Positions 20,252-41,335 are shown, counted from the stretch's first letter. The stretch: DNA of 64,000 nt from Candidatus Levybacteria bacterium RIFCSPHIGHO2_02_FULL_40_18 (GCA_001782235.1 MFOC01000007.1:86799-150798), one strand, 5' to 3'. Notes: generated by a model not told the origin, from the sequence alone. Translations and numbers: made by a program.

Positions 20252-20755
20252 TTAATAAGTTTCCCCCTCTTCAGCGTCAGGAATAGGGGGGGAAGATGTA
20301 TTAAGCTCATAAATAAATGGAGGATATAGGGCTGATCCTTCTGTTGATTTTGTTTCTTGCGTAACTGTGATTTTTGTCCTTCCTTCCGCCCAAGAGATAG
20401 CAGGGGTGATTATCAATGAGTTTGGAACAGTGCCTTGCCGGACAGATGTTTTAACAAAAGGTTCAACAGTGTACTTTAAGTTTTCTGGGATTACAACACC
20501 ACTAAACAAAAATTCTACTGGTTGAAAAGTTAAGTAGAAAAGATCAGAGGATTGACGAGGTGAAGATCTAATAACTTGAAAAGTTTTTACCTGCGGCCCA
20601 AGTGTTGGGGAAGAGGTTATTTCTCTGGTTGGTTCGGGTGTGGTTTCGGTCCGGGGCACATAGGGTCTCAAAATTAAAGACAAAAGCAGGAAAAAAACGG
20701 GTATTACGATAATAAATAAAACAATGAATAAGTATATGGTTTTTATTTTTTTCAT
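20252..20755 (-). CDS. N-terminally membrane-anchored hypothetical protein, last gene of the T4SS-like operon
   Basis: One N-terminal TM helix followed by a Pro/Thr-rich linker. Confidence 0.45.
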   Translation of the reverse strand: MKKIKTIYLFIVLFIIVIPVFFLLLSLILRPYVPRTETTPEPTREITSSPTLGPQVKTFQVIRSSPRQSSDLFYLTFQPVEFLFSGVVIPENLKYTVEPFVKTSVRQGTVPNSLIITPAISWAEGRTKITVTQETKSTEGSALYPPFIYELNTSSPPIPDAEEGETY

Positions 20756-20764
20756 TTTATAAAT

Positions 20765-22981
20765 TTATAAACAAAAATTTGCCGCAGTATCAATAGGTTT
20801 TCTTCCTCCTGTTCCGAGAGAGGCAAACTCAAAATGAACATGATTACAATTGGGATTGTTTGTACAAATTTTGGCCCCAACATCCCCTGATTTTCCCTCT
20901 GAAGTGCCGCTTCCCTGGTCTACATGATGGAATCTAAGCCAGTAGAGCTTACTGGAAGGGCTTGTTCCTCTATACTCTATTATATAACCGACGCCGCTAT
21001 TAGTCCTATCTTCGGAAAGTAGTATCCAGTCAAGAATCTCCCCATCAATTTTTGGAAAATACACATTTTGCCCAGGAGGGCCGGGTATGTCTTCTGCGTA
21101 GTGTATATCTTCATATATGCATAGTTCGGGCGCAGGATAGTTGAGGCCGCAATGCCCGCATTCGCTTCTTGGTGTGAACTCGCTTCCGCAGGAAACAGTA
21201 GATGCAGTTGCTCCCGGAATCGGGCATGTAGCTGAAAACAATGGCCCTGAGGGTGGTGCAACTTCGATCAGCGCGCCATAAGACCCTGCCGGAACAAGTT
21301 TTTCATACCAAAATCTTATATTCGGAGGGAAGTTTGGATTTTGTGCGAATGTACAAGGCGCATCATGCCCGTCACTGTACCTACACATAAAATCAGCAAA
21401 TCTATCATTTGATAAAAAACCGAAACTAATAAAAACACAAGCGAGGCTTTTATTAATATCATCATTTTGCTGACCCGGTGCGCACCCAAGTGGGTCTGCG
21501 GCAGGCACCCCTTGCGCCCCCGACTCCTCAATCCATAGAGCAAGAAGAAACGCAGGATTCCATCCGTTTGCAACTGCCTGCGACACAATGGTATCCCAAT
21601 TGCCAATCTTTGCATCGGGCCAGTTAGCAGTGATTTGTCCGCGAATATCTTGCGGGATTACGTTTGGGTCACGAAAGGGTATAGAGTAGTTAAGTCCTGC
21701 CGCCTGTTGTCCTCCATCTCCAGGGCCGGTCCCCTGACCCCCTCCTCCCCCGCCTCCAAGACCAAGGCTGGGAGCAAAATTGCCTGGGTTAAATATAATA
21801 ATGAATAATGCAAGAGCAAAAATTACAAGAAGACCAATTCCTGCCCATCCGATAGGCGTGAGTTTTGCGAAAAAGCCAAGCGGCTGTGTTGCTGTTTGTT
21901 CAACTATTCGTCCCGCTGTTTGGACATTGCTTAACAAAGATGGGAGTTTGTTAATCCGATCCACTAAGCCCCTTCCAAGCCTTGATCCCGGAGCGCTTCT
22001 TATAGGCGTAGTGCCTATAGGTTTCTCAAGCGGAATATATAATTTATGGGGAGGGACAGCAGGTTTTATGGCTTCAAGTCTTTTTGTTGCTTCCGAAACC
22101 GATATTTTTGGAGCCTCGCGCTTAGCCTTTTCTACGTACTTTATTTCTTTCCCCGTGCTCTCTTGGAAAGACCGAAGACTTCTTTGAATACTCTCTCTTT
22201 CGACGGTTCTCCGTATATCATTATTGCTTGCTTGGTAAGCGCTAGATTTAGTAGGGTATTGCTTTGCAAACCTATCCCACTCCCGACTCTTGATCTTCTT
22301 TTCAATCTCGTCCCAATTCTCTTCGAGCTTTCCCGCTTCAAAAAGAGCTTTTCTTGCCTTAATGTGCTCGTCTATATTGCTCTTCGCTCGATTAACAGCG
22401 GGATCTTCATCAAGGGTTTTATAAATCTTTTTTGCGCGCTCGTCATAATATGCTGCCCGGCTTTTGTTTTTTTCGCGAAATTGTCTCTCGGCATCGCTAC
22501 GAAGCGTTGGAGCATCTGGGTTGTCCAAATTGCCATAGCGATAATCTAACCATTCGTGGCTCTCAGAGGTCTTCCCGGGATTATTTTTCTGCCACTCTTT
22601 TGCTAAATTCTCCTCTATTTTTTTAAACTTAGGGTCATCCTCCAATAGATCTGGCCGCCGCCGGATAAAGAAAAGAGGAGACGCTAGAAGTCCTGCAAAA
22701 TTTGCAAAACCCCCCTGCCCTCGAGCGGTTTCTTGTGGAGCTTCAGGTTCTTGCGTGGGTATTGTTGAAATAGCCTCAAGGATTTGACTTCCTATCCAAA
22801 TACGTTCTAGTTTGTTTGGATCAACGCTCAGGTCATTTGCGCGAAGATATGCCGCCAGTTCTGCGCGAGTTTTAAAAGGAGGTACGCGGTTTTCTTTTAG
22901 ATACTCATTTGTTTCTATTGCATAGCTTTGAGCGCGCTCACGGTTATTCTTTATAAATTTTGAAATATTGTCCATTGGCAA
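20765..22981 (-). CDS. Membrane-anchored bifunctional peptidoglycan hydrolase: lytic transglycosylase (SLT) plus M23 peptidase. Functional analogue of VirB1/CwlT/PrgK.
   Basis: TM helix, Gly-rich linker, SLT catalytic ALWIEESGAQG. M23 signature SGDVGAKICTNNPNCNHVHFEFASLGTGGRKPIDTAANF. Confidence 0.75.
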   Translation of the reverse strand: MPMDNISKFIKNNRERAQSYAIETNEYLKENRVPPFKTRAELAAYLRANDLSVDPNKLERIWIGSQILEAISTIPTQEPEAPQETARGQGGFANFAGLLASPLFFIRRRPDLLEDDPKFKKIEENLAKEWQKNNPGKTSESHEWLDYRYGNLDNPDAPTLRSDAERQFREKNKSRAAYYDERAKKIYKTLDEDPAVNRAKSNIDEHIKARKALFEAGKLEENWDEIEKKIKSREWDRFAKQYPTKSSAYQASNNDIRRTVERESIQRSLRSFQESTGKEIKYVEKAKREAPKISVSEATKRLEAIKPAVPPHKLYIPLEKPIGTTPIRSAPGSRLGRGLVDRINKLPSLLSNVQTAGRIVEQTATQPLGFFAKLTPIGWAGIGLLVIFALALFIIIFNPGNFAPSLGLGGGGGGGQGTGPGDGGQQAAGLNYSIPFRDPNVIPQDIRGQITANWPDAKIGNWDTIVSQAVANGWNPAFLLALWIEESGAQGVPAADPLGCAPGQQNDDINKSLACVFISFGFLSNDRFADFMCRYSDGHDAPCTFAQNPNFPPNIRFWYEKLVPAGSYGALIEVAPPSGPLFSATCPIPGATASTVSCGSEFTPRSECGHCGLNYPAPELCIYEDIHYAEDIPGPPGQNVYFPKIDGEILDWILLSEDRTNSGVGYIIEYRGTSPSSKLYWLRFHHVDQGSGTSEGKSGDVGAKICTNNPNCNHVHFEFASLGTGGRKPIDTAANFCL

Positions 22982-22991: not shown

Positions 22992-25049
22992 CTATGAAGA
23001 AACTATTTTTATTCCTTGAGAGCTTTCATCTAGGTTGGCTTGCGAAATTTTTTCTTGCTCTTGAACGGGAGACGTGTTAGCAGGGGGGGCTGTCATATCT
23101 TGCGCCTGTGTCTCTGGTTGCTCTCCGGGAGCGGATTGAGCGTCAGCGATGGAGGCATCCTCGCTGACAGGCGTGGGCGACGTAGCGGTGGCTGCCTCTT
23201 CTTCATGGGCAAGAATATCTTGAGGTTTTGAGGTGATCAGATCATATTCATATTGTGACGCTATGAACTGCGCGGTTACATGGTTTTGTCCTGCAAAAAG
23301 AAGTCCTTCCCCAACCTGGGCGGTTACTAAAAATTGTTTCTCTCCTTCTGATAAAAATAACGTTTTTGCCAAAACTTCAACTTCTGACGAGTTCTGTTTC
23401 AAGAGAATTTGGACTGAGGAGTTTGAAAGAATAGACTTTCCATAGTCGCTTGACAGGAAATCTTCAATATCCTGAGTAAGGGTTGTCACGCCAAGAAAAT
23501 ATTTTCTTGCGCGCTTTGCTATCCCTTGCAAAAAGGAGGCAGAATCAGGATGCTTCATAAGATACCATGCCTCATCAACCACCAAAATTCTTTTCTTAAG
23601 TTTTGTTCTGACGCGATTCCAAATAAAATCTAAAACCACGTGCATTGCAATTGGACGCAAAACATCCTCGAGCTGTTTAAGAGAAAAGACGGTTAATTGA
23701 TTTTTTATGTTGTAATTCGTCTGCTGATTAAATAGCCCAGAGAATCCACCTTTTACATATTTTTCAAGACGGAAAGAGAGATCCCTTGCCTCCGGCTCCT
23801 CCATATTAAGTAAGGTTTTATAAAGGTCCTCCAAGATCGGCGGCTCGTTTTTGTAGGTTGCAGGATCCGGCGTTATTCCCTTTTGCTTGTAACAAAGAAC
23901 AATCGCTCTATCTAAAATTGCCTCTTGTGTTGGAGACATCTCCCCAAGCATTGTTTTTAGGAGTCCGTGAAGAGATAATATTTTTATTCCAAGCTGGGCA
24001 TCTGTCATGTCTTCTTGGAGAAGGGCAAACGGGTTAATTTTTACCTCAGAACTTTTTGAGAAGTTTATATATTCGCCATCCAAAGCATGACATAAGGTTT
24101 TGTATTCATCTTCGGGATCTATTATTAAAATCTCGGCGTCAAACATCATTTGCCGCAAAATTTCAAGCTTTACCAAAAAAGATTTTCCGGCGCCCGATTT
24201 TCCAAAGACCACTTCATTTGCATTCTCAAAAGAAAAGCGGTCAACAATCGCAAGCGAATTATTTATGGTATTCACGCCATATAGAATTCCGTTTGGATGG
24301 GAAATTTCATAAGACGTAAATGGAAAAGTTGAAGCCAAAGACGTTGTGTCCATATTGCGGGTTATAAATAGCTTGTCGATTCCTGCTGGAAGACAGGTTT
24401 TGAATCCGTCTTCCATCTGAAGCGTTGCGGGTTTTACAACCAAAAGGTTTGAGGAAAGCAAAGACTGAAGTTCTTTGGTTTTTATATCTAAATTCTCAAC
24501 TGAATCTGCTGCCAGGGTTATATATAGACCAAATTGGAAAAACCGTTCAAGACCTCGCGCTAGCTCTTCTCGGAGCGCTATAGCATCTTCAAGCCCCGCC
24601 TGAATTTTAGGATCCGGCTCAAGCCCCTGTTCCGCATCTGACTGAAGTGTTGCCTCCATCTCGGAGATTTTCCTTCGCAGGTTTCCCAAAACATCCTTGC
24701 TTTCAACCGGATATACAAACATTGATATGTTCATTGTTTCTTTATAGTCAATAAGAATTGAGAGCCAGTTTGGAGAAACCTGACGAGGGTAATCTACAAC
24801 AAAAAACGTTCTGAAAAACTTATCGCCAACTCTTATATTTTTAAAATCTACCTCAACTGAGGAGGGGGATATAAGGTCAACAACAGAAACCGAGCCTGAC
24901 TTGAGAGCATTATATCCTTGCGAGGAGGCGCGTTTTTGAGCAGGCCCCGCACCGTCCCGGTGCGGGGCAGGGACTTTCTGGATCTGAGCGTTAGCGGCGG
25001 TTGGATCCGATATAGCCTGTGTCTGTTGTTTTTTATCTTCATCAAACAT
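22992..25049 (-). CDS. VirB4/TrbE/CagE-family T4SS ATPase, central and C-terminal ATPase portion
   Basis: LISPSSVEVDFKNIRVGDKFFRTFFVVDYP region; Walker A VFGKSGAGKSF; Walker B ILVVDEAWYLM. Confidence 0.85.
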   Translation of the reverse strand: MFDEDKKQQTQAISDPTAANAQIQKVPAPHRDGAGPAQKRASSQGYNALKSGSVSVVDLISPSSVEVDFKNIRVGDKFFRTFFVVDYPRQVSPNWLSILIDYKETMNISMFVYPVESKDVLGNLRRKISEMEATLQSDAEQGLEPDPKIQAGLEDAIALREELARGLERFFQFGLYITLAADSVENLDIKTKELQSLLSSNLLVVKPATLQMEDGFKTCLPAGIDKLFITRNMDTTSLASTFPFTSYEISHPNGILYGVNTINNSLAIVDRFSFENANEVVFGKSGAGKSFLVKLEILRQMMFDAEILIIDPEDEYKTLCHALDGEYINFSKSSEVKINPFALLQEDMTDAQLGIKILSLHGLLKTMLGEMSPTQEAILDRAIVLCYKQKGITPDPATYKNEPPILEDLYKTLLNMEEPEARDLSFRLEKYVKGGFSGLFNQQTNYNIKNQLTVFSLKQLEDVLRPIAMHVVLDFIWNRVRTKLKKRILVVDEAWYLMKHPDSASFLQGIAKRARKYFLGVTTLTQDIEDFLSSDYGKSILSNSSVQILLKQNSSEVEVLAKTLFLSEGEKQFLVTAQVGEGLLFAGQNHVTAQFIASQYEYDLITSKPQDILAHEEEAATATSPTPVSEDASIADAQSAPGEQPETQAQDMTAPPANTSPVQEQEKISQANLDESSQGIKIVSS

Positions 25050-25057: not shown

Positions 25058-25170
25058 TAATTCAAAACTCAAAAGTCAAAAGTTAAAAATTAAAGTTAAA
25101 ATTTAAAAGTGTTTTTAATACTTTTTACTTTTGAATTGCAATTTTGAATTTTGCATTTTGACTTTTAACT
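25058..25170. repeat. AT-rich mirror/inverted word repeat: AAAAGTCAAAAGTTAAAA words, then after about 25112 their complements ACTTTTGA/TTTTGACTTTTAAC
   Basis: Read directly. Potential long imperfect hairpin between the two VirB4 ORFs. Confidence 0.55.
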
Positions 25171-25845
25171 TTACAATATTACATTCTTAATATCATTCGA
25201 ATCAAAATCCAAAGTAATAAACTCCTGATTGAATAGTTCATAGTAAAGCTTTATAAGCTCATTAGTTGAAAGTGGTCGAGCAGAGAGTCCCATTCTCTCA
25301 ACTTGCGTAGTAACATTGTTTCTTTTTGAAATAAGCGCTGATTTTACCCTCTCATTTAATGCCAGGTTTTTTTTGTCCGTTGTTTTCGCTTGTGCAGCAG
25401 AGGCTACCCCAAGCTCCAGTTGAGAAAACGGGATTACAATATAAATCTTTTTGTCTAAAAGTCCCTCACCCTTTATCAGATCTTTTATAAAATCTCTATA
25501 TAATGTTAATTGTTCCTTGACCTTAGGGTTTTGGATTCCTGCTATTTTATCCTCGATTAGTTTTATGTAACTGACAAGATCTACGCGCCGTGAGACAATC
25601 AATATTTGAATAGATGAAGAGAGAGAATTAAGAAGAGACATGTAGCCATAGATTCTTGCGTTTTGTTCATCTTGTGAGAGAAGGAAAAAATTAACGGACG
25701 AAACTTCCATAATCATACAAGCATTGCCGCCTTTTAAGAAGACAATATCGTCCTGGATGTCAACAATCTCAGTAAAATCTTGCGTGCTTGAGTGAATCTT
25801 TGACTTAGCCATAATCGATATAGAAATTGGTTGTAGGATTTCCAT
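25171..25845 (-). CDS. VirB4 N-terminal domain (CagE_TrbE_VirB N-terminal region) encoded as a separate ORF
   Basis: STQDFTEIVDIQDDIVFLKGGNACMIMEVSSVNFFLLSQDEQNARIYGYMSLLNSL...IQILIVSRRVDL resembles the N-terminus of TcpF/PrgJ-type VirB4. Confidence 0.6.
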   Translation of the reverse strand: MEILQPISISIMAKSKIHSSTQDFTEIVDIQDDIVFLKGGNACMIMEVSSVNFFLLSQDEQNARIYGYMSLLNSLSSSIQILIVSRRVDLVSYIKLIEDKIAGIQNPKVKEQLTLYRDFIKDLIKGEGLLDKKIYIVIPFSQLELGVASAAQAKTTDKKNLALNERVKSALISKRNNVTTQVERMGLSARPLSTNELIKLYYELFNQEFITLDFDSNDIKNVIL

Positions 25846-25880
25846 TACTAATTTCCATTTTCCAATAACTATTTTCTAGT

Positions 25881-26954
25881 CTATGCTGTTGCTTGGACTC
25901 CGCCGAATAGTTCGCGTCTTAGTTTCTCACGTGCGTCGATTGACGTAGTTTCTAGTGGATTAAAAATCTCGCCGTTCAAAGTAATTTCCGTTGCTTCAAA
26001 TTCATGATTTTTCTGTGGGTCCTCAAAATAGATTTTATAGGTGCCGTTTTGAAGCTGAGTAGCAGAGGCAAATTGTCCAAGAGCATTTGTTTTAAAGGCC
26101 CTAACCGGAATGCCGTTTGAGTCAATTACCTCAACTAAAATATTAGGCAAGGTTTTACCTCGTGCATCACGGATAATTCCAAGCACTACATTGGGGACAT
26201 CGGGTAGAGTTGGAAAGCCTCCGGTAAGGCTTGGATTTGCACGCACAGGGGTTGGCTGTGGCAGAGTTGTTTCTTTTGGAATTTCATGCCGAGTTTCCTT
26301 CATTGAAAATTCAGCGTCCCCAGCCTCTTTTTTGGGGACAGGCGGGGGGCGTTGAGCTTCCTTTGCGATTTCATCAAGTCTTTTTTTGTTCAGCTCCGAA
26401 GCCGTGTTTTCTTGATTTACCACCATAGGACTTCCTAAAACCGGCGGAGTAGAGACCGCACTTGATCCGTTTGTAAAATAGCTATTGATGGTGTCCAATA
26501 TGCGAGTTTCTGATTGATCCGGACGGAAAGGAGAATTTCTGAGTCTGCTTAATAAAACTGCTCTTTTTTCATCTTGTGGATTCGCAACCTTTGCTATCCC
26601 GCCTTGGCGGGGGGCACCTTGCTTTTTGGGAAGCTCGCCAAACACTTGAAACGTTGCCAGATTTGCACCCCTTTTTCTATATAGATAGCGATTTTCAGAA
26701 GGAATTGCTTTTGCAAAGTTGACGAGCATTACATCCATTGGTCTTCCTTCAATTGGAACAAATGCAAGAGCAACTCCTACAAGCGCAAAAGCCGCCATAG
26801 TTGGAGCTTTAATTAAAATATTGATTGGAAGTACAAAAGCAACAGTTGTTAAAATTCCAAATCCGAGAAGATATAAAAATTGCTTTACAGTAATGCTTCC
26901 AATGAGTTTAAACTTGAAACCCGTAACATCTTGCGGAATAGGGTGATTTTCCAT
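25881..26954 (-). CDS. PrgI/VirB3-like membrane protein with a long C-terminal extension ending in a carboxypeptidase-regulatory-like beta-sandwich
   Basis: N-terminal IPQDVTGFKFKLIGSITVKQFLYLLGFGIL plus a second TM. C-terminal VVLGIIRDARGKTLPNILVEVIDSNGIPVRAFKTNALGQF. Confidence 0.5.
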   Translation of the reverse strand: MENHPIPQDVTGFKFKLIGSITVKQFLYLLGFGILTTVAFVLPINILIKAPTMAAFALVGVALAFVPIEGRPMDVMLVNFAKAIPSENRYLYRKRGANLATFQVFGELPKKQGAPRQGGIAKVANPQDEKRAVLLSRLRNSPFRPDQSETRILDTINSYFTNGSSAVSTPPVLGSPMVVNQENTASELNKKRLDEIAKEAQRPPPVPKKEAGDAEFSMKETRHEIPKETTLPQPTPVRANPSLTGGFPTLPDVPNVVLGIIRDARGKTLPNILVEVIDSNGIPVRAFKTNALGQFASATQLQNGTYKIYFEDPQKNHEFEATEITLNGEIFNPLETTSIDAREKLRRELFGGVQATA

Positions 26955-32260: not shown

Positions 32261-32659
32261 TTATTTGAATTCAGGGAGGGTGAGGATCTTGAGATTTCTT
32301 AGGTCTCCAAGTCCAAGAGCCTGAAGCACAACATTTATAATGACAAAAGAAAGAGCTATTATAATAAGACCTATTACTGCGGCAATTATATGATTTCTTG
32401 CATCTGCAACTTTTTGTTTGTCTCCGCCTGATGTGATCCACTGAAATGCCCCAATGACTATAAAAAGAAGTGCCGCCAAAAAGGCTATAACTATTATAAA
32501 GGCAACCAAAAACCCTACCACTTGGCCAATGGTTGTTTCAGGAGGAATAACAGTTGCGCCCGCGGGAGTTTTGACTCCGGCATCTATCGCGGCAAAAGCA
32601 GGTGCGGCAAGTGAGGAATAAGAAATTAGAGCGAAGGCACCTGATAATATCTTTCTCAT
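32261..32659 (-). CDS. T4SS pilin-like protein with signal peptide, paralog 2
   Basis: Signal peptide ...LAAPAFAA, then TM-SGGDKQKVADAR-TM. Confidence 0.65.
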   Translation of the reverse strand: MRKILSGAFALISYSSLAAPAFAAIDAGVKTPAGATVIPPETTIGQVVGFLVAFIIVIAFLAALLFIVIGAFQWITSGGDKQKVADARNHIIAAVIGLIIIALSFVIINVVLQALGLGDLRNLKILTLPEFK

Positions 32660-32698: not shown

Positions 32699-33034
32699 CT
32701 ATGGATTAACAACTGTTTTAACACCAAACGCGCCTGCTACGAGATTTACAAAGACAAGCGCCAATGACATAACTATTAATCCAAATATCGCATAGATAAC
32801 TATTCTTCTTGCTTTATCCCATTTTTGCTTGTCCCCGGACGCTTGTAGCCAATAAAAACCCCCATAAACAATATAGAATAGAGAAAGAAAAATTCCAATA
32901 ATTAGCGCTAGTTGAATGAAAAAAGATGCAATATTGCCTATTGTAAATTGAGGTCCGGTAGGAATACCGGGAGGCGCCTCAATATCAACTTGGCCTCCGC
33001 CTGAACCCGGTACTTTTAATGATAAATATCTCAT
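32699..33034 (-). CDS. T4SS pilin-like protein, paralog 3
   Basis: TM-ASGDKQKWDKAR-TM. Confidence 0.65.
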   Translation of the reverse strand: MRYLSLKVPGSGGGQVDIEAPPGIPTGPQFTIGNIASFFIQLALIIGIFLSLFYIVYGGFYWLQASGDKQKWDKARRIVIYAIFGLIVMSLALVFVNLVAGAFGVKTVVNP

Positions 33035-33171
33035 ATTAGAAATTGGTTATTAATAATTAGAAAATAGTTCAGAAATTAGAAATTAGAAATTGGTTCTTGA
33101 TTTTTAACTATTTTCTATTCTCTATTTTCCATTACCATTTTCCATTCTCCTATAACTATTTTCTAATATAT
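33035..33171 (-). repeat. Word-repeat palindromic leader element, copy B, 5' of the pilin paralog-3 gene
   Basis: ATTAGAAATTGGTTATTAATAATTAGAAAATAGTT... then CTATTTTCTATTCTCTATTTTCCATTACCATTTTCC. It contains a 29-bp segment (33084-33112) that is a perfect inverted copy of 34648-34676. Confidence 0.6.
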
Positions 33172-34569
33172 TTAGCGGGTGATTCCTGGTATTTTCAAAA
33201 TATCAACTCCTATTATCTCAAGTATAACAATTGAGAAAATGATGAACAACAATCCTACGACTGCAGAAGTTATCGTTTCCCTTGCTCCTGCGATTTTCTC
33301 TTTATCCCCTCCTGACGTTATTAATATATAGCCTGAGTAGATTATTATTATGATTGCCCCAAATCCCGCAATTGTTAATATAAATCTAAAAATTGTCTCA
33401 ATGAATCCTTTTGGAGTGACATTAATTGGTCCGATTGCCGAATTTATGGTTTTACAGTCACCAGGGCGAAGATTAATATCACCTTCCCCACTTCCACAAG
33501 GCAGTATTGCACCGGGAGCAACCTTATTTAACGCCGCAAGGTCTTTAAGAAAGGTACGATACTCCTCGCCTTTGGGATCTTGTCTATAATGCAGGGGATC
33601 ATCACATGTTCCACCTTCCTTATTATTAGCTGATGTGATTATGCATGTTGCTTCATAATATGTAAATCCACCTTTACAACCAGGTGGGTTTGGAACTGAA
33701 GGAAATACGCTGACGCTTACCCAAGCCCATGCGGTTGGGTTATCATCATCAACCTGTTCTCTTACAGTTATTGTGTATTTTCCAGCGGAAAGTTTTTGAA
33801 ACTCAATTCTTTTTCCACTCTCATTCTCGCTCGTAAAGGCAAGACATCCTCCCTGTCGGTAACCATTGTTTCCAATCATCAAAATTTGGTAGTTATTCCT
33901 TCTCCACCCTCCAGGCCTGAACGAATTATTAATGGCATTGCCTAGATTTACGGTGATTGTTGCGCCAGGTCTCAAGTCTGTACCAGGATAGATTGATAGA
34001 GAAGGATAAGTTCTATGAACATAAAAACCTCCTATTTTAATTGGTTTGTAATAGGCATCTTTTATTAGGGTTCCGATACTCAGCGCATAGACATTCCCAC
34101 CATGAAAATAGACAGTGCCACCACAGTCAGTTTTGACCTTGCTACTTCCTGCTCCGCATACCCCCTTAACAGTTACATTGCCTTTGCTATCTGATTTTAG
34201 CCCTAAGATAAAATTGTCCAATATATCTGGGCCGTTTATCCCAGGTACAAATCCTTCTTCTCTAAGACATGCGCTGTCTCCCGTACAAATTATATAACCA
34301 GACTTATCACTCTCAAGTCCATAAAAAGTAATATCAATTATTTTATCTGCTTCATCAAGACATTCAGGTCGCTCGCTTGTTGAAAATTCAACGTCTGTTC
34401 CCTCAAGAATTGTCTCAGTGGGAGAAGGACTTGTCTGACATGGATCAAGCTGGGCAAAAGCAGGAGTTTTGAAAAGTAAAAATATCGCGGCGAAGAGGAA
34501 GGACGCGGTTAATATAAGAAGCTTCTTCATATATTTATGATAGGCAGAAGGAGTAGGGGAAGTCAACAT
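33172..34569 (-). CDS. Large pilin-domain protein: signal peptide, Cys-rich extracellular domain (about 380 aa), C-terminal pilin-like two-TM module
   Basis: C-terminus ...IIIIIYSGYILITSGGDKEKIAGARETITSAVVGLLFIIF matches the paralog motif. At least 14 Cys in the ectodomain. Confidence 0.6.
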   Translation of the reverse strand: MLTSPTPSAYHKYMKKLLILTASFLFAAIFLLFKTPAFAQLDPCQTSPSPTETILEGTDVEFSTSERPECLDEADKIIDITFYGLESDKSGYIICTGDSACLREEGFVPGINGPDILDNFILGLKSDSKGNVTVKGVCGAGSSKVKTDCGGTVYFHGGNVYALSIGTLIKDAYYKPIKIGGFYVHRTYPSLSIYPGTDLRPGATITVNLGNAINNSFRPGGWRRNNYQILMIGNNGYRQGGCLAFTSENESGKRIEFQKLSAGKYTITVREQVDDDNPTAWAWVSVSVFPSVPNPPGCKGGFTYYEATCIITSANNKEGGTCDDPLHYRQDPKGEEYRTFLKDLAALNKVAPGAILPCGSGEGDINLRPGDCKTINSAIGPINVTPKGFIETIFRFILTIAGFGAIIIIIYSGYILITSGGDKEKIAGARETITSAVVGLLFIIFSIVILEIIGVDILKIPGITR

Positions 34570-34723
34570 CCGCTAGAAATTAGTTATTAATAATTAGAAA
34601 ATAGTTGTTGGAAAATGGAAATTAGTAATGGAAAATAGAGAATAGAAAATAGTTAAAAATCAAGAACCAATTTCTAGTTTCTAATTTCCGAACCATTCTC
34701 TAATTTCCCATAACTACTTTCTG
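34570..34723 (-). repeat. Word-repeat palindromic leader element, copy C, 5' of the large pilin-domain gene
   Basis: GCTAGAAATTAGTTATTAATAATTAGAAAATAGTT... (30-mer near-identical to the start of copy B), then GGAAAATGG/GAAAATAG words, then CTAATTTC words. Confidence 0.6.
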
Positions 34724-36040
34724 CTACTCTGTGAGTTTGTAGCCGCGGCCTTTTATGGTTTGGATAGAATTAGGATTATTGGGATCATCTTCTATTTTCT
34801 TTCGTAAGCGATAAATTATTTGATCAAGGGCTTGGTCTGTTACACCTTCTTGAGTTTTAGTGTCTTTCCAGACATTTGAGATTATTTCGTCTTTTTCACA
34901 TACCCGCCCTTGGTTTTGAAGCAAAAATCTAAGTAGTCTAAACTCCTGCGGAGAAAGAATTTCGGTTAAGTTTTGATCTCCCTTGAGGATCTCATTGCGC
35001 TCCTGATCATAAGACAATCTTGGGGAGGTGGGGGTTAAAGTTTTTAGGTATGTGTCGAACAATGGAATAACGAGTTTGCCATCACGGGTTAGTCCTGCCT
35101 TTTCTAAAAATTCATTTTTATTATTTGCTTTTATATCCTTCTTTTCTTCCGGTGTCAGGAAATTCCATATCTCTGAAAGCGCGCTCCTAACCTGTGGTTT
35201 TAACAGTAAGACTTCGGATAATCGGCTGTTGGCTGTTGGCTGTTGGCTATTGGCCAGGGTAGCTTCATAACAAATTCGTGCGAGTTTTCCGTGGCCGCCG
35301 GTCAGTTTTATAATTTCACTTTTAATTCTTTCATCAGCCGACTTTCCCGAAATTTCTTCAAGATGCTTGAATCGAAATTCTAGTCCCACCTTATCATAAA
35401 GCGAAAGATATACTATGTTACCGATTAAAAACTCAGAGAATTCGGCATAAATAGAAGATTCTAAAACCTCCTCGATTGGACGCGTTATGCCAAAAACAGC
35501 AGTAAATCTATACTTTGCGCGGTTTCGAAGAATCTTTAAGTTAAGAAAAAAGGAAGAGTCAATATTTTGTACATATTCCTCAAAACGGTCCAGCAGAAAA
35601 ACAATATTTAATTCGCATTCATTTGCAAGATAGTCTATAGCTTTTTTTAAGTTTTGAGAAAAGACCATCTCATCGGAGAATTTAAGAGCGTCTGAGAGAA
35701 ATTTATTAACAACCGACTCTTCTTCTTTTAATCTTCTTTCGCCAAAAGAGGAAGCAATAGAGATTAAGATAAATTTTAATATGTCGGAAAGGGACCTTTT
35801 GGCTACTTCTGAGAAGTCCATATAAACAAAATGATAAGAAGATTCCCTTTTACCTAAGTGGAGCTCCCGGACCGTTCTATTATAAGGAAGTAAACGAAGC
35901 GCGTTGCTTTTCCCTGTGCCCGGTAGCCCAATTACCTGACAGGATTTGCCCGATGATACGAATTCGATAATTTTGGCGATCTCAGCCTTTCTTGTTTCTT
36001 TTGGGTATAGGCTCTCAAAATGAGAAGGCTCGATAATCAT
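34724..36040 (-). CDS. AAA+ ATPase fused to a C-terminal OmpR/PhoB-type winged-helix DNA-binding domain. Putative regulator of the locus.
   Basis: Walker A VIGLPGTGKSNAL, Walker B IVFLLDRFEE. C-terminal LSPQEFRLLRFLLQNQGRVCEKDEIISNVW...ALDQIIYRLRKKIEDDP...IQTIKGRGYKL (trans_reg_C). Confidence 0.7.
   Translation of the reverse strand: MIIEPSHFESLYPKETRKAEIAKIIEFVSSGKSCQVIGLPGTGKSNALRLLPYNRTVRELHLGKRESSYHFVYMDFSEVAKRSLSDILKFILISIASSFGERRLKEEESVVNKFLSDALKFSDEMVFSQNLKKAIDYLANECELNIVFLLDRFEEYVQNIDSSFFLNLKILRNRAKYRFTAVFGITRPIEEVLESSIYAEFSEFLIGNIVYLSLYDKVGLEFRFKHLEEISGKSADERIKSEIIKLTGGHGKLARICYEATLANSQQPTANSRLSEVLLLKPQVRSALSEIWNFLTPEEKKDIKANNKNEFLEKAGLTRDGKLVIPLFDTYLKTLTPTSPRLSYDQERNEILKGDQNLTEILSPQEFRLLRFLLQNQGRVCEKDEIISNVWKDTKTQEGVTDQALDQIIYRLRKKIEDDPNNPNSIQTIKGRGYKLTE
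35224..35251. repeat. Heptanucleotide tandem repeat (GGCTGTT)x3 plus GGCTATT inside the AAA+-wHTH coding sequence
   Basis: Read directly: GGCTGTTGGCTGTTGGCTGTTGGCTATT. Encodes ANSQQPTANS on the minus strand. Confidence 0.8.
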
Positions 36041-36103
36041 AGAAAATAGAAAATAGTTATTAGAAAATAGACAATGGTTCGGAAATTAGAAAATAGAAAT
36101 TGG
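36041..36103 (-). repeat. Word-repeat leader element, copy D, 5' of the AAA+-wHTH gene
   Basis: AGAAAATAGAAAATAGTTATTAGAAAATAGACAATGGTTCGGAAATTAGAAAATAGAAATTGG. Confidence 0.55.
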
Positions 36104-36532
36104 TTAACGATCATGGTAATTCTTCCAAGATTTCTTAAGATTCGTTAGTTGCTTACAGGAGATTATATATAAATTTATGACTTCGTTGCAAAGTTTAGGA
36201 TCGACGTATTTACTATAAACATCTATGCATACTGATAAATGATTTATCATTTCGTAACATTCACCTATCGTATCATCTATATATTTACTCCATGCTTTTT
36301 TCTGATATCTTTTGGCAAACCCCTCAGCAAGTATGGCTGGTCCTGCTTTGCAACTACGTCTCATTTGATCAACAAGATCAAACTTCTCTTCCTTCGGTAG
36401 ATTAGTAATTATTTCCTTCAATACTGTGACCATTGCCTTATATAAATTTTGGTACACCTCAAGATCTTGAAAAGTTCTGATTGGCTTTTTCTTTCTATTT
36501 TCCATTTTCAAATATCTATTACCATTTTCCAC
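36104..36532 (-). CDS. Four-helix-bundle protein (23S rRNA intervening-sequence protein family). The probable true start is near 36505, because the first codons are built from leader-repeat words.
   Basis: FQDLEVYQNLYKAMVTVLKEIITNLPKEEKFDLVDQMRRSCKAGPAILAEGFAKRYQKKAWSKYIDDTIGECYEM matches the family pattern. Confidence 0.65.
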   Translation of the reverse strand: MENGNRYLKMENRKKKPIRTFQDLEVYQNLYKAMVTVLKEIITNLPKEEKFDLVDQMRRSCKAGPAILAEGFAKRYQKKAWSKYIDDTIGECYEMINHLSVCIDVYSKYVDPKLCNEVINLYIISCKQLTNLKKSWKNYHDR

Positions 36533-36560
36533 TTTCCTACAACCATTTACAATTATCAGA
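36488..36560 (-). repeat. Word-repeat leader element, copy E (CTATTTTCCATTTTC... on the plus strand), overlapping the annotated 5' end of the four-helix-bundle gene
   Basis: TTCTATTTTCCATTTTCAAATATCTATTACCATTTTCCACTTTCC. Confidence 0.5.
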
Positions 36561-36627
36561 CTTCTGTTACGCTGCTGTTAGGTTAATATCAAGTATCCTA
36601 AGCTATATTCTTGTAAACTTGCGCCAT

Positions 36628-39600
36628 ATGACACACGAAAATTTGACACCAAGAGACGCTATCAACTATTCTATAAATAGAATGCCAGAACCCATAATAG
36701 ATGGCCTACGAGGCGGCTCTGCCTCAAGTCGTTCAGTTCCGGGATATGATTCTTCCAGAACCGTAGATGAAATACAGGCTCAAAGAATTGTTGATGAGGT
36801 CAAATCCAAATCTTATTCTGCTAAAAGCAAATGGAGCAAAGAACAGGTTGATAAAAATGCCGGGCTTTCTGATGAGGAACGTCTTAGTCAAGCAGCTAAA
36901 ATTTTAAATCGGGAGCTTTCTCAAGAACAAAAAGACGCAGTCATTGGAACACATAAAATTAGCGAAGGCGAGATGGGAAAAGATGATAAACCTGTCAAAA
37001 TAGGAGAATACACACAGGCTCAAATTAAAAGAAAAGCCAATTCATTGAAAAAAGCAGGGTTTAATCTTGAAGAAAGGCGTGCTTTGCTTGAAAGCGGCAT
37101 TGCCGGCCTTCCTCTGGAAAGATTCGCCGCTATTAATCCTGACACATATACAGATCCTGAGATTAAAAATAAAACGGGGTTTGTAAAAACTATGGGGACA
37201 GAAGGAAACGCTGATTCGGAATTCTTACAGAATCAACTCTTTGAACTCAACTCTAGAATCGATAGGGGAACTGGGGACCTCAGAGAAGCAAGAACATTTC
37301 GGGATCAAATACAAGATCTTTTGACAGAGGCTCGTAGGCAAGAAACTGCAGAATTAGAAGAGAGAAGGCGTGCCGCGGAGGCAAGGTCTCCTACAGAGAG
37401 AAGGGGAGGCTATGAGCATCTTGAACGAACAGAGGAACAATTAAGAGCTATGACTCCTGAGGAACGTCAGAATTGGAGGGATCAAATTAAGCAGGCAATC
37501 AGAGAAGCGCCAGCCATCGATGCCTCTCGCTTCCCTGAACAACTTTTAGTAATAGCATTGAGCGATAAGGAACTTCGTGAGATGCTTCTCAATAGAATTC
37601 TTTTTAAACCCTATGAAGATACAACTGAGGCAAATATGTATAGGCTTAACTTTTACGCTGAGGGGAATCGCGACGATATTCTTGGGAAATTAGCCGAAAT
37701 AACTGATGGGAAATATGATTATTTTAAAAAACTTCAGACCGCGGTAGAGTTATTTCATGCAATGAATGTATCAACTGTCTCAGGAGACATAGAGCATTTA
37801 CTTGACTATGCTCGGCGAATAAATTTTGAACATTTTTCCTTAATGCAAGAGCTTCCAGGTCTCCCAGATGTCATGAGGCTTTATGAAGAGAAATACCAGG
37901 AGATTTTAGCAAGAGAAGGTAGAATAGCAACAGAGGGTTACAAAACATTAAAAAAAGAAGTAGAGAGAGCCTTCAATGAGATGAATGAAAAAGGGATTGT
38001 CAGAAGCGAATATGAAACGGAAAGGACTGGTGACAGGCCATGGATAATGGAAGACTGGGAAAGAACTAGGGCTATTAATGCGGGAAGAGCATTTTTTAAT
38101 ATTACCATTCGCGCAGCAGAACATATAGCAAATGGACAACTTGAGTCTGGAGGTAGAAAATGGACAGGATTTCCTCAGGAAGACGCTGTAAGACTTATGA
38201 ACTGGCCAAAATGGCTCGTTGAGAGATTTGAGGTTGCTATCCCTCGTGGAGGGCGTGCGTTTCTTGACAGAACAAGTAGAAACTACTTTGAATTTCTTGT
38301 TGAGCGCAAGCGAAAACTGGGGATAAATAGAATAGCCCAGCTTGGAGGAATGAGGGTTGATGAGCTTGAACTTGGGGCAATGTTTGGCGTAAGCGGAGTT
38401 TATAGCTCCTGGAGACTTGAGGCAATGCTATTTCCAAAGATCAAACTTGCCAATGGCCAGACACTTAGAGACTGGCTTGATGAGGAAGTCGGATATATAT
38501 CGCCGGACGGCAAGACAATTATGGCAAGAGGGAAAGACAGGCAGAGTCACTGGGTTGATAAAGGTATCTCCTTGCAGAAGCGGGCTGACTGGTTAGACCA
38601 GATTCAAGGAGATATTAAAAGCCAAGACCAGTTGCTCAAGTTTTTATCTCCTGTCATAGAAAATACAGACATTGCACTTGGTGTATTACTTAAGCAAGGT
38701 CTTACCTCAGGAGAGGTAGGATATAAGGTGAGAGAGAGAATTTGGCAAAGAGTTGCTGAAACAAATCTGCCTCTGATGATAAATTATCTTTCAAGCATTA
38801 GTGAAATGGATGATCCAATAGAGGTTGGTATAGGAGAACCTTTAAAAGGCGCACCAAAAGCTCAAAATCGCATAAGGCCAGATGACTGGACGTGCGGCGA
38901 AGAAGGGAGCGAGGAACGAAAGGAGGGAGATAGGAAGTGGAATGAGTTTAAAGAAAATGTTTTACTGCATCATGCCTGGGAAGTTAAACGCGCGGCGGGA
39001 GCAAATGTGTCAGAGGAGTCGCCTGTCCGTGATTATATTCGTGATCACCAAGATTTGATAGATAAAATTAAGCAAGAGGGGAGAGCACTTGCACCGCAAC
39101 TTGCAGATATTGTTTTTCCTTACGTTCCTTTTATGAATGACGTGCCATTTGAACTTATCGATTATGCAGGCCCGGGAGAAACATTCTACAAGAGGAGATT
39201 AGGCTCTGACCTTCCGAGCTTTAGCGCTGCAGAGCGCGCGTTTACAACCATTGTTAATAATCCGGGTGGGATAGGAGCAGAGAATGCACTTAAGGCATTT
39301 GATGAGATTGTAAAAGGAATTGAGAGTCCACAAGGGACACCGGATGCGCAGGAAAGGGTCTATCCAATGCTTTCTGCCTGGGGAGAATTTGTCCTGGCGC
39401 GTCCCGGGCATAGACAGATGATAATAAAGGCAGTTACAGAGATACTAAGAAAACCCACTTCCATTGCTCAGGAGTTTGCAGGAATGGATGCGGAATCTCT
39501 CGATGAAAATCAAATGCTGGCTGTTTTAGGAAATGCTACGAAAGCTGGAATTATAAGCCATGACCTTTACAATGAGATGAAGAAAAAAAAGCATCTGGGC

Positions 39601-39702
39601 ATTCTTTTTATCTTGTGGGCGCTTTTCCGTGATATTATTATAATGGCTCCGGCAATCGCAGCTTGGGAGATGGGTAAAGATACGATGAAGAAAGCGGCAT
39701 GA
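36628..39702 (+). CDS. Large (about 1020 aa) hypothetical protein with a C-terminal TM anchor, on the opposite strand inside the T4SS-like locus. Start chosen at ATG 36628.
   Basis: Long ORF; C-terminal HLGILFILWALFRDIIIMAPAIAAW hydrophobic helix. R/E-rich with no recognised domain. Confidence 0.55.
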   Translation: MTHENLTPRDAINYSINRMPEPIIDGLRGGSASSRSVPGYDSSRTVDEIQAQRIVDEVKSKSYSAKSKWSKEQVDKNAGLSDEERLSQAAKILNRELSQEQKDAVIGTHKISEGEMGKDDKPVKIGEYTQAQIKRKANSLKKAGFNLEERRALLESGIAGLPLERFAAINPDTYTDPEIKNKTGFVKTMGTEGNADSEFLQNQLFELNSRIDRGTGDLREARTFRDQIQDLLTEARRQETAELEERRRAAEARSPTERRGGYEHLERTEEQLRAMTPEERQNWRDQIKQAIREAPAIDASRFPEQLLVIALSDKELREMLLNRILFKPYEDTTEANMYRLNFYAEGNRDDILGKLAEITDGKYDYFKKLQTAVELFHAMNVSTVSGDIEHLLDYARRINFEHFSLMQELPGLPDVMRLYEEKYQEILAREGRIATEGYKTLKKEVERAFNEMNEKGIVRSEYETERTGDRPWIMEDWERTRAINAGRAFFNITIRAAEHIANGQLESGGRKWTGFPQEDAVRLMNWPKWLVERFEVAIPRGGRAFLDRTSRNYFEFLVERKRKLGINRIAQLGGMRVDELELGAMFGVSGVYSSWRLEAMLFPKIKLANGQTLRDWLDEEVGYISPDGKTIMARGKDRQSHWVDKGISLQKRADWLDQIQGDIKSQDQLLKFLSPVIENTDIALGVLLKQGLTSGEVGYKVRERIWQRVAETNLPLMINYLSSISEMDDPIEVGIGEPLKGAPKAQNRIRPDDWTCGEEGSEERKEGDRKWNEFKENVLLHHAWEVKRAAGANVSEESPVRDYIRDHQDLIDKIKQEGRALAPQLADIVFPYVPFMNDVPFELIDYAGPGETFYKRRLGSDLPSFSAAERAFTTIVNNPGGIGAENALKAFDEIVKGIESPQGTPDAQERVYPMLSAWGEFVLARPGHRQMIIKAVTEILRKPTSIAQEFAGMDAESLDENQMLAVLGNATKAGIISHDLYNEMKKKKHLGILFILWALFRDIIIMAPAIAAWEMGKDTMKKAA

Positions 39703-39721
39703 AGCTTTTCTTGCTGTTCTT

Positions 39722-41335
39722 TTATCTAAAGACCCGTCTGAGAACAGCAGTAAGCCCTTTCTCACCCGCCAGTGGCATAGCGCCTTTTAGAGCTGCAAAA
39801 CCACCTCCAGCAGTTCCCCTAACAGTTCCTGTTATGACACCCAGTCCTCCTGCAACCGATCTTCCTATTGCTGCGGTGTACTTAAATTCGGGCGCTTTTA
39901 GAGCGTCCCTGACAATATTGACAACTTCAGGGGTCAAGAGAATTATTCCAAGACCAATTATTGACGCAAAGTTTGCTGGATCCAAAAAGTCTCCGGTAAG
40001 TGGTGGAACAAAAGGCGTTGTGCTTGGATCTTGTTTAGTAAAGCCACTCATAAAAGCCTTTCCAAAAAGAAACATGGCAATTGTTACCGGAAATACCGAG
40101 AGGTTTGATAATATTGATCTTATCCACGTTCCAAAACCAGATCTTCCCGGGATTAGCCCCGAGGCAATATAAAAGGGGGCAAGGACTACATTTATGAGGA
40201 CGTAGATATAGGATTTAATAAGTTGAAACCAAAGACGCAGGAGCGCTGCAAAAATTGCGATTATTATAATAAGGTACGTAACTGCACCTGCAAAAAATCC
40301 CAGAATTCTATTTCCAGACAGTTCATTCACCCCAAAACCTATTGCAAAACCTGCTACCGCCCCAGGGATCCCTCCGAAACTGCCAGCAGCCTTAGCTACT
40401 TTACCTAGCACTGAAGGTAGTCCACCTCCTGCGCCGCCCAACACGGTTCCAAAGATTCCGCCGACAATTCCTGCTAAAACATTCCCAAGAGTACCATCAA
40501 ATATAGATCGCACAATCCCTGAGATACTTTTAGCAACGCCTTCTGCAATTCCAGATATCCCCATGTCCTTTCCGGTGAGCGGGGCGCTGCCAAATCCTCC
40601 GGCTGCCGCAAAGGGGTTACTTGCCAACATACTTGTTGGGTCAATTCCTTGCTCGGCGAATATTGTCATAATTAAGTAGATTGAGACATACATAAGGTCC
40701 ACTAAAAACCCTGCGATTGCATAAGAGAAGGTAATCAAAACTAGAGCAATCACAATTTTTGGAATTTGATTTTGCATTGTCATAACGGTTCTGGGGTCAA
40801 TTTTTATTCTAAACATTATTCCAAGACCCACAATTATAAAAACAATTACAAAGAGAAGATAAGTCAAATTTCTAAAAGCCTGCCAGAGCTTAAGAGTGGG
40901 CGTAAGGGAATTAAAACCTAGGCTTCCCTCAGGTCCTTGCGCATATGTTTTTTTAACTATGCCAAAATTTGAAGCAACATAGCTTCCGTAATCATGAGTT
41001 GAGACAGGAATGTAAAAAGTTGCCGACATAAGATTTCCCAACATTCCAAGCGCTCCGCCTCCTCCCTCAACAAATCCTATTTTTCCAGTATTTGGATCTA
41101 TTCCAAGACACTTATTACCAGGATTGGCGGGATCAATTCCTGAGAGTTGACAAGAAGTTGCGGCGATAATTTCAATAAAGACGCTTTGGGTGTATGTATG
41201 GAAATTCTGCGGGACGTCCGGATTTGTGTTGAGGTAATTTGCATTAGGGTTTGGGAATTGAGCATTCGCGTTTGGTACAAAAATAAGGAACAATGAATAA
41301 AGAATAACGAATAAAGAGAGCAGTTTAAATATCAT
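39722..41335 (-). CDS. VirB6/TrbL-like polytopic inner-membrane T4SS component, with signal peptide and Gly-rich segments
   Basis: Signal peptide ...VPNANAQ, at least 7 TM helices, Gly-rich loops GGIFGTVLGGAGGGLPSVLG. Position and size typical of TcpH/PrgH/VirB6 analogues. Confidence 0.55.
   Translation of the reverse strand: MIFKLLSLFVILYSLFLIFVPNANAQFPNPNANYLNTNPDVPQNFHTYTQSVFIEIIAATSCQLSGIDPANPGNKCLGIDPNTGKIGFVEGGGGALGMLGNLMSATFYIPVSTHDYGSYVASNFGIVKKTYAQGPEGSLGFNSLTPTLKLWQAFRNLTYLLFVIVFIIVGLGIMFRIKIDPRTVMTMQNQIPKIVIALVLITFSYAIAGFLVDLMYVSIYLIMTIFAEQGIDPTSMLASNPFAAAGGFGSAPLTGKDMGISGIAEGVAKSISGIVRSIFDGTLGNVLAGIVGGIFGTVLGGAGGGLPSVLGKVAKAAGSFGGIPGAVAGFAIGFGVNELSGNRILGFFAGAVTYLIIIIAIFAALLRLWFQLIKSYIYVLINVVLAPFYIASGLIPGRSGFGTWIRSILSNLSVFPVTIAMFLFGKAFMSGFTKQDPSTTPFVPPLTGDFLDPANFASIIGLGIILLTPEVVNIVRDALKAPEFKYTAAIGRSVAGGLGVITGTVRGTAGGGFAALKGAMPLAGEKGLTAVLRRVFR

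Follow-up and report, generated by a model that had tools for sequence, protein, structure and literature searches.

A probable non-conjugative type IV secretion locus beside dnaA-dnaN in Candidatus Levybacteria

Introduction

The Saccharibacterium Southlakia epibionticum requires its type IV secretion system (T4SS), including the pilin array, to grow as an epibiont (PMC10633639; PMC12857230); no T4SS had been shown to be essential for its owner before that of Patescibacteria. In 2025, Quinonero-Coronel et al. surveyed 3035 Patescibacteria genomes, with a table that lists 59 'Levybacteria' entries as well as many RIFCS assemblies. Their paper (PMC12102498) describes a monophyletic Patescibacteria VirB4 clade nested in the mating-pair formation (MPF) class MPF-FATA, TrsD as the commonest VirB4 partner, PrgI/VirB3, and arrays of VirB2-like pilins, especially in Microgenomatia. 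Genes for the type IV coupling protein (T4CP) lie mostly far from virB4, relaxases are nearly absent, and the loci are close to dnaA/dnaN in Microgenomatia and Paceibacteria. Here we describe a locus of this kind at positions 20252-41335 of a 64,000-nucleotide stretch (hereafter the window) from Candidatus Levybacteria bacterium RIFCSPHIGHO2_02_FULL_40_18 (GCA_001782235.1, MFOC01000007.1:86799-150798). An earlier reading of this DNA, the original prediction, took it for a T4SS or conjugation-like locus inserted between the replication-origin genes and nrdR.

The Patescibacteria-clade systems are the nearest described relatives. Those of the survey (PMC12102498) and the S. epibionticum system (SEML1_0006-0019, PMC10633639) share with our locus an MPF-FATA VirB4, an adjacent TrsD, PrgI/VirB3, tandem divergent PF18895 pilins, a hydrolase after virB4, a remote T4CP, the lack of a relaxase and the site at dnaA/dnaN. 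In Microgenomatia VirB6 is scarce and PrgI rarely linked to virB4 according to the survey (PMC12102498), whereas PrgI and a probable VirB6 are both present here; PrgI adjoins TrsD, and the VirB6-like gene lies 14 kb upstream, its product being too divergent for the VirB6 hidden Markov model (HMM). The hydrolase encoded here is likewise invisible to the SLT and M23 HMMs. The locus offers evidence that VirB6 and a VirB1/PrgK-like hydrolase exist in Microgenomatia yet escape standard HMMs, which would explain why surveys report them as scarce. Neither antisense ORFan slots nor an ATPase-winged-helix regulator is described in the available parts of the two papers (PMC12102498, PMC10633639).

Unlike the MPF-FATA conjugative systems (pCF10 Prg/Pcf, pGO1 Trs, C. 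difficile CTn2 CD1110), the locus has no relaxase, oriT context, PrgB adhesin or adjacent T4CP; it does have VirB2-like pilins, which the Gram-positive MPF-FATA systems lack, and it is fixed and syntenic in the chromosome, whereas those systems reside on a plasmid or an integrative and conjugative element (ICE). The MPF-T systems Agrobacterium VirB/VirD4 and R388 Trw resemble the locus in having VirB2-type pilins, VirB3, VirB4, a VirB1-like enzyme and, on indirect evidence, VirB6 (for which TrwI is the best structural match), but VirB5, VirB7, VirB8, VirB9, VirB10 and VirB11 were not recognised in the locus, and the architecture is monoderm.

The origin-proximal position, TrsD, PrgI, pilin arrays, remote T4CP and absence of relaxases have all been published for Patescibacteria between 2023 and 2025, and the locus represents no new kind of system. 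It is a clean Microgenomatia example with a complete gene order from dnaA to nrdR. Our additions are modest: fold-level support for the hydrolase and VirB6, a conserved ATPase-winged-helix regulator, and two hypervariable antisense slots.

Results and Discussion

Identity and inheritance of the locus

The region 20252-41335 very probably encodes a chromosomal, non-conjugative, vertically inherited Patescibacteria-type T4SS of Candidatus Levybacteria (Microgenomatia, candidate phyla radiation or CPR). Its ancestry is probably that of monoderm MPF-FATA machinery to which a VirB2-like pilin array has been added. The core set consists of TrsD and the VirB4 ATPase, an extended PrgI/VirB3, a probable divergent VirB6, an anchored hydrolase, three plus one pilins and the ATPase-winged-helix regulator. 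The T4SS nature of the region, and the components first called by eye (VirB4 N-domain, SLT+M23 hydrolase, VirB6-like protein, pilins and TraG-like ATPase), survived testing, the VirB6-like call on indirect evidence. A Pfam scan of the 52 open reading frames (ORFs) of at least 120 aa in the window returned no relaxase (MOB), integrase or recombinase and no member of the VirB8/9/10 or VirB11 families, in agreement with what had been read from the sequence by eye. The view that a Gram-positive/CPR-type system without relaxase, integrase and outer-membrane core is unlikely to be a classical conjugative element therefore stands.

The claim of insertion does not. Synteny was compared in 80 species-level genomes with a VirB4 relative of 54-88% identity, among them Levybacteria, Gottesmanbacteria, Chisholmbacteria and Shapirobacteria; 68 of the 80 loci are informative for dnaN, whereas in the other 12 the contig stops too early, leaving no more than 4 kb. 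In all 68, dnaN lies downstream of virB4 on the opposite strand, at 46-6551 nt, and is usually followed by dnaA. The order dnaA-dnaN, hydrolase-VirB4-TrsD-PrgI, pilins-regulator is common to these 68 Microgenomatia relatives. On the far flank, the two relatives that were checked (loci L081 and L083) have ribonucleotide reductase (RNR), nrdR, DUF5667, the VirB6-like gene, an antisense ORF of ~1000 aa, the regulator and the pilins, as here. Codon usage is native: GC content at third codon positions is 0.27-0.39 in T4SS genes and 0.24-0.39 in housekeeping genes, synonymous-codon likelihoods are similar (dnaA, rpoD, RNR and the like), and the higher total GC of some T4SS genes is due to codon positions 1 and 2. 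The locus is thus chromosomal, origin-proximal and conserved within the class, a lineage-typical inherited core feature beside dnaA-dnaN and not an inserted element. This corrects a tempting view of such loci as inserted mobile elements.

An ordinary ICE, or a decayed remnant of one, inserted beside the origin with the tRNA-bracketed VirD4 gene as its second fragment is very improbable: although the best curated VirB4 model is a conjugal-transfer ATPase family (CD1110), VirD4 sits between two tRNA genes, which are classical integration targets, and accessory ORFs of the locus lack homologues in the nearest relative, the 52 scanned ORFs include no relaxase, integrase or recombinase, VirD4 is 13 kb away, codon usage is native, the placement recurs in every informative genome with both flanks conserved, no long direct repeats bound the region (only short intergenic palindromes, also present outside it), and the adjacency of virD4 and tRNA-Ile(tat) in about 48 of 80 kept relatives means that it is no integration scar.

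Conservation is uneven within the locus. With respect to the closest relative, L001, VirB4 and TrsD are 88% and 87% identical, above DnaA and DnaN (78% each), while the pilin-fusion protein pil465 is 44% identical, the hydrolase 38% (last domain only) and the small protein p167 29%. Surface-exposed parts of the T4SS are fast-evolving.

Strands and gene arrangement

The genes of the locus and the VirD4-like gene are on the minus strand unless stated otherwise. The outer limits of the locus had been placed correctly, 20252 being the stop end of the 167-aa protein and 41335 the start of the 537-aa protein, but the internal organisation had been read as two minus-strand operons, which overlooks three plus-strand genes (1004 aa, 115 aa and ~1024-1073 aa). 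Position 27196, from which the first operon was said to run, marks where the coiled-coil gene stops; that gene reaches up to 28479 or 28539. The second, drawn from 41335 to 31902, cannot be a single operon either: a plus-strand ORF (36481/36628-39702) parts the VirB6-like gene from the rest, so that with 3 kb of opposite-strand gene in between it is not co-transcribed with the pilin genes. This ~1024-aa ORF converges on the VirB6-like gene. A plus-strand pair (28531-31545 and 31554-31901) parts the pilins from the coiled-coil and PrgI genes, and a 241-nt gap separates the latter two. Scanning for promoter and terminator consensus motifs produced numbers that fell within or near shuffled expectation, and no operon boundaries were therefore drawn from them.

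VirB4, TrsD and PrgI

The 685-aa VirB4 ATPase (22992-25049) scores 410.5 bits, over a cutoff of 325, with NF045971 ('VirB4-like conjugal transfer ATPase, CD1110 family'), the model of the C. difficile CD1110-type conjugal VirB4. It matches P-loop_TraG (7e-34) and CagE_TrbE_VirB (2.8e-4) in Pfam and PDB entry 4ag5 (1e-46), and carries the motifs GKSGAGKS (Walker A) and VVDEAW (Walker B). The NF045971 score and the 4ag5 match identify it as a VirB4 of the monoderm (MPF-FATA/CD1110) type. The protein is 100% identical to OGH15939.1 and other accessions of Candidatus Levybacteria bacterium RIFCSPHIGHO2_02_FULL, has 7878 homologues at E<=1e-10, and the named sequences among its 120 best homologues are Levybacteria or Patescibacteria. 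Its alignment to the CD1110 profile covers positions 177-732 of 752, without the N-terminal ~175 positions.

The missing part is found next door. A 224-aa ORF (25171-25845) matches TrsD (6.3e-8, short of the curated cutoff) and aligns to positions 100-278 of VirB4_plasma, a mycoplasma VirB4 model (2.4e-9), and to positions 18-181 of CD1110 (6e-5). The two ORFs tile one VirB4 profile, so VirB4 is split into a TrsD-like N-domain protein and an ATPase, which confirms the separate N-domain ORF that had been proposed. A TrsD-like ORF is immediately upstream of virB4 in 73 of the 80 related loci. The extended PrgI/VirB3-like protein (25881-26954, 357 aa) passes the PF12666 cutoff (30.5 bits versus 27; 5.4e-7) and combines an N-terminal membrane domain with a C-terminal beta-sandwich (CarboxypepD_reg-like, 8.4e-5, under the cutoff); PrgI is upstream of virB4 in 70/80 related loci. 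The 121-nt gap between the TrsD and virB4 genes is filled by a 51-nt inverted repeat (25060-25177; 75% complementary, 16-nt spacer) that is AT-rich, with AAAAGT/ACTTTT-like units.

The VirB6-like protein

Identification of the 537-aa polytopic protein (39722-41335) as a divergent VirB6/TrbL-like component is supported at the level of fold and family by lines of evidence that are individually weak but convergent. It has 770 homologues; of 50 that were aligned, 3 match PF04610 TrbL (best E 1.3e-7), and these share 44-64% identity with the protein. In a Foldseek search of the PDB with its AlphaFold2 model, which has a predicted local distance difference test (pLDDT) score of 70, the top five matches were all TrwI/VirB6 of R388 (best probability 0.97, TMt 0.41). 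The family profile found no match among PDB sequences.

The wall hydrolase and p167

The 738-aa product of the gene after virB4 (20765-22981) is supported, on a fold model and conserved motifs, as a predicted membrane-anchored wall hydrolase analogous to VirB1/PrgK. The protein comprises a helical, cytoplasmic N-domain (aa 3-303), a transmembrane (TM) segment near aa 375-395, a domain with a lysozyme/lytic-transglycosylase fold (aa ~430-563) and conserved WIEESG, and a domain with an M23/LytM fold (aa ~580-738) and conserved HH and HxH. No sequence-level match of any kind was obtained, including with the Pfam SLT and M23 HMMs; the domain folds were settled by an AlphaFold2 model of the last 315 residues (pLDDT 84), with which the WIEESG, HH and HxH motifs agree. 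Predicted features are a catalytic Glu in the lysozyme fold and His/Asp metal ligands in the M23 fold. The middle domain occurs elsewhere as a fusion with canonical M23 or CHAP domains, and the slot after virB4 in relatives holds mostly M23, CHAP and SLT domains. The SLT+M23 hydrolase seen by eye is thus borne out by fold and family, though not by a Pfam match of its own.

The hydrolase is a domain mosaic, with N-domain, lysozyme-fold and M23-fold parts separate or recombined in relatives (loci L001-L069); in some, the M23-fold domain is a stand-alone protein of ~200 aa whose N-terminus is hydrophobic and resembles a signal peptide. Since the HxxxD motif typical of M23 is replaced, the M23-fold domain might lack catalytic activity, as EnvC and DipM do. 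The VirB4 operon ends with p167 (20252-20755), an N-terminally anchored protein of 167 aa that converges on dnaN with a 2-nt gap. It has no Pfam or NCBIfam match; 11 related loci carry homologues of 29-46% identity at the corresponding site. A role as VirB8 analogue was considered and set aside for lack of sequence support.

Pilins and regulator

Four VirB2-like pilin paralogs were expected from the original prediction, and four are present. Three exceed the PF18895 (T4SS_pilin) cutoff of 26.6 bits, with 41.2, 36.7 and 33.3 bits: a 102-aa protein (31902-32210; PF18895 1.7e-10, TrbC 2.3e-4), a 132-aa protein with a signal peptide (32261-32659; 4.4e-9) and a 111-aa protein (32699-33034; 5.3e-8). 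The fourth, pil465 (33172-34569, 465 aa), is a pilin fusion with a signal peptide, a variable extracellular domain of ~340 aa and a C-terminal VirB2-like pilin domain (aa ~387-451) just under the same cutoff (24.7 bits; PF18895 2.5e-5, Mbov_0395 pilin-like 4.7e-5). The four pilin domains form a divergent PF18895 array, 28-45% identical pairwise. Homologues of pil465 occur in 44/80 loci and vary greatly in length, and the order pilin-fusion, pilin, pilin, pilin was found upstream in 38 of the 49 loci with at least 7 kb of upstream sequence.

The pilin array is headed by a regulator (34724-36040) in which an N-terminal P-loop domain (STAND/AAA-like; weak NPHP3_N, AAA_22 and AAA_16 matches) is fused to an OmpR/PhoB-type winged helix (Trans_reg_C 9.5e-23), as the earlier assignment of an AAA+-winged-helix regulator had it. 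The regulator heads the pilin array in 29 of the 80 loci and is also present in L081 and L083. The adjacent four-helix-bundle protein (36104-36532) was recognised correctly as well; it matches PF05635 (23S rRNA intervening protein/Avd-like; 3e-15) and is accessory, with BLAST-detectable homologues in 2/80 loci. A diversity-generating retroelement, considered because of this Avd-like protein, was rejected: the window has neither a reverse transcriptase nor a template/variable repeat pair. PF05635 recurs in variable slots across the T4SS clusters of Levybacteria (5 of 63 slot-A proteins, 2 of which also match bAvd), for example as ORFs of ~110-125 aa beside ORFs of ~600-700 aa, with no reverse transcriptase nearby.

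The VirD4-like ATPase

A separate VirD4/TraG-like gene, bracketed by tRNA genes, had been predicted at 54372-56789. Its 805-aa product passes the Pfam cutoffs of TraG-D_C (25.4 bits versus 22) and TrwB_AAD_bind (24 versus 20.5), and the gene, 13 kb from the T4SS locus, lies between tRNA-Ile(tat) at 54198-54269 and tRNA-Ser at 57300-57385. Matches to SXT_TraD (9e-14) and conju_CD1115 (4e-7) are both under the NCBIfam cutoffs, and those to DotL and TrwB in the PDB lack significance (E 0.17-0.24). A TM segment at the N-terminus and the motifs GKTGVGKS (Walker A) and YVDEFQ (Walker B) can be read directly in the sequence.

Less apt is the description of this ATPase as displaced, since its tRNA-Ile(UAU) neighbourhood is itself conserved and a remote VirD4 is usual in the phylum (PMC12102498). 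At least 598 metagenomic relatives were confirmed, of which 80 loci were kept (L085-L164); tRNA-Ile(UAU) lies downstream of virD4 in about 48 of the 80. We found virD4 beside virB4 only in L121 among these loci and in L074 among the 80 VirB4 loci. The UAU anticodon of the tRNA-Ile is unusual for bacteria, and in relatives one or two genes for tRNA-Met(CAT) often come next.

Two variable slots with giant ORFans

Slot A, between the pilins and PrgI, holds three genes: a tail-anchored coiled-coil protein (27196-28539; 447 aa from TTG, with a likely ATG start at 28479), a 1004-aa ORFan on the plus strand, antisense to the T4SS genes (28531-31545), and an acidic 115-aa protein, also on the plus strand (31554-31901). 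Only 4 of 80 loci have this trio; L001 lacks it, and there PrgI directly adjoins the last pilin. Homologues of the 1004-aa ORF, likewise in 4/80 loci, are 24-28% identical, versus 56-86% for VirB4 in the same genomes, and neither the ORF nor its family has a Pfam match. The 115-aa protein, with no significant Pfam match, co-occurs with the 1004-aa ORF in L007, L023, L039 and L042 and is found in L022 as well; it is a candidate chaperone or partner of that ORF. The coiled-coil protein, with no family match, is accessory and lineage-restricted (homologue in L007 only; absent from L001). Other Levybacteria carry unrelated ORFs of ~600-700 aa and small ones of ~110-130 aa in slot A, some of the latter with PF05635. 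Local iterative HMM searches did not link the giants or the 115-aa protein to these differently sized ORFs.

Slot C lies between VirB6 and the regulator and is occupied here and in L081 and L083 by an antisense ORF of 937-1237 aa. In the present locus the plus-strand ORF opens at 36481 (1073 aa) and has a probable Met start at 36628 (36628-39702, ~1024 aa); either form has a C-terminal TM tail and lacks a Pfam match. It is 22% identical to the ORF of L083 and has no detectable homology, even by hhalign, to that of L081, versus ~60-87% identity for flanking genes. In a library of 1.8 billion proteins, the 1073-aa family is represented by 491 sequences at E<=1e-3. The 1004-aa and 1073-aa ORFs were also considered as paralogues and found unrelated by BLASTP and hhalign. 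No domain recurred consistently when both giant families and 37 remote relatives were scanned with Pfam.

The slot C protein contains, near ~36826-37155 (aa ~67-176 of the protein from 36628), a module of ~90 aa shared with 17 or more proteins of 460-1800 aa that are unrelated in other respects, with the consensus RL..A..LLGR.LT..Q..AI..AH.VG.GE.GKDG..AGV.NYT..QL..KA.ILK.AGF...ERR.L.E.G.VG. Its position varies among these proteins from N-terminal to central or C-terminal, and no PDB sequence matches it. Ankyrin-repeat families were matched by 1 of the 37 scanned family or module-sharing relatives.

Slots A and C could, at rather low probability, be polymorphic cargo cassettes whose ORFans serve as T4SS substrates or host-specificity determinants (effectors, tip adhesins), in some cases with a small partner such as the acidic 115-aa protein or a PF05635 four-helix bundle. 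If so, slot ORFans would be swapped or would have diverged past recognition between species whose core genes are 60-88% identical, and the ~90-aa module would be a delivery or docking domain. Hypervariable slots in a constrained cluster are in any case concrete candidates for substrates or host-range determinants.

Possible functions

Established knowledge of VirB-type systems suggests how the parts listed here, conserved and in a non-mobile context, might work together. VirB4/TrsD docked on PrgI/VirB3 and VirB6 would form a translocon in the cytoplasmic membrane, and the anchored hydrolase would open the cell's own wall locally. The translocon may extract the pilin paralogs from the membrane and polymerise them into a surface filament, with one subunit bearing a large variable ectodomain, and the variable subunits would contact a host bacterium. 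At the contact, macromolecules might cross, either as protein effectors or, by import, as nucleic acid or nutrients, which is distinct from DNA conjugation. The remote VirD4-like ATPase may or may not feed the machine. No functional sub-model is given more than a somewhat less than even chance, and reviews name effector delivery and DNA/nucleotide import as possibilities for a system whose function is unknown (PMC11665869, PMC12857230).

Several points weigh against the overall interpretation. We know of no cultivated Levybacteria, so an epibiotic lifestyle is assumed by analogy. Transport direction and substrate are inferences, and the function of Patescibacteria T4SSs has been called 'completely unknown' (PMC11665869). 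The 537-aa VirB6-like protein lacks a Pfam match of its own, and with a best Foldseek E of 0.098 its assignment is indirect. No VirB8-like component was recognised by sequence, and several NCBIfam matches (TrsD, VirD4 families) score under curated cutoffs.

Two other functions were weighed, both of them unlikely. The machine might take up DNA or scavenge nucleotides, like H. pylori ComB or archaeal Ced, importing host DNA for a cell unable to make nucleotides. Import has been raised for these systems (PMC11665869), and the survey reports T4SS loci of class ABY1 co-localised with comF, recG and radA (PMC12102498). The locus itself has no relaxase and no coupling protein, and adjoins nrdR and RNR, with a ComF-like gene nearby (weak DZR_2 match); the nrdR adjacency, however, may be mere origin-region synteny. 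VirB4 is weakly similar to CedB (1.8e-10) and CedD (1.3e-6), but with 40 bits against a cutoff of 700 and 27 against 600 these scores fall far below that of the conjugative VirB4 model. Pfam detected no ComB-type VirB7/9/10, and nothing in the sequence favours import over export.

It is also doubtful that the locus mainly builds an adhesion or pilus organelle, in which VirB4 only assembles a VirB2-type filament whose variable pilins bind hosts and nothing is translocated. The divergence of the four pilin paralogs, the large, length-variable ectodomain of one of them and the retention of the array in most loci with sufficient upstream sequence are consistent with such an organelle. So is the remoteness of the coupling protein, which is dispensable in S. 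epibionticum according to the survey (PMC12102498). Retention of the VirB6-like protein, PrgI and a full VirB4 under strong constraint argues otherwise, as does conservation of the VirD4-like ATPase genome-wide, and Patescibacteria already adhere by type IV pili (PMC11665869).

Surrounding genes and minor features

The T4SS locus is set among ordinary chromosomal genes. On the near side these are dnaG, rpoD, ruvABC, a glycosyltransferase gene, dnaA (17554-18966) and dnaN (19152-20249); on the far side, DUF5667, nrdR (42707-43156), RNR, an adenosylcobalamin (AdoCbl) riboswitch, tmRNA and smpB. The riboswitch is of the AdoCbl-II type (45704-45777; 39.8 bits versus a cutoff of 36.5) and lies between the RNR and cobalamin adenosyltransferase genes; in relatives, DUF4430, prenyltransferase-like and DUF6580 genes are found between these two. 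The tmRNA (48499-48854, 130 bits) adjoins smpB (48875-49315), an ordinary feature that was found by Rfam and missed by ARAGORN. Many records with the Levybacteria-type locus are titled 'uncultured Gammaproteobacteria bacterium' or 'Pseudomonadales' (L002, L004, L007, L008 and others). They look like mislabelled metagenome-assembled genomes and give no evidence of transfer to Proteobacteria.

Imperfect palindromes of 75-150 nt with AGAAAWTRG-like units (RNA minimum free energy down to -43 kcal/mol) occupy intergenic positions at 10022-10112, 25821-25884, 33037-33170, 34573-34729, 36040-36105, 36486-36572, 41344-41496 and 42558-42709. Allowing up to 2 mismatches, the 12-mer TAGAAAATAGTT was counted 50 times, versus 15.8 +/- 3.6 in shuffles. 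Two copies, forming an inverted repeat (I1, 130 nt, 88% complementary), flank the pil465 gene. Most copies are inside the T4SS locus; others are between ruvB and ruvA and upstream of nrdR. Binding sites for the regulator were considered and rejected, since the palindromes also stand at ruvB/ruvA and nrdR and are absent from 77 of 80 related loci; with this distribution they look like a lineage-specific element resembling repetitive extragenic palindromes or miniature inverted-repeat transposable elements (REP/MITE-like).

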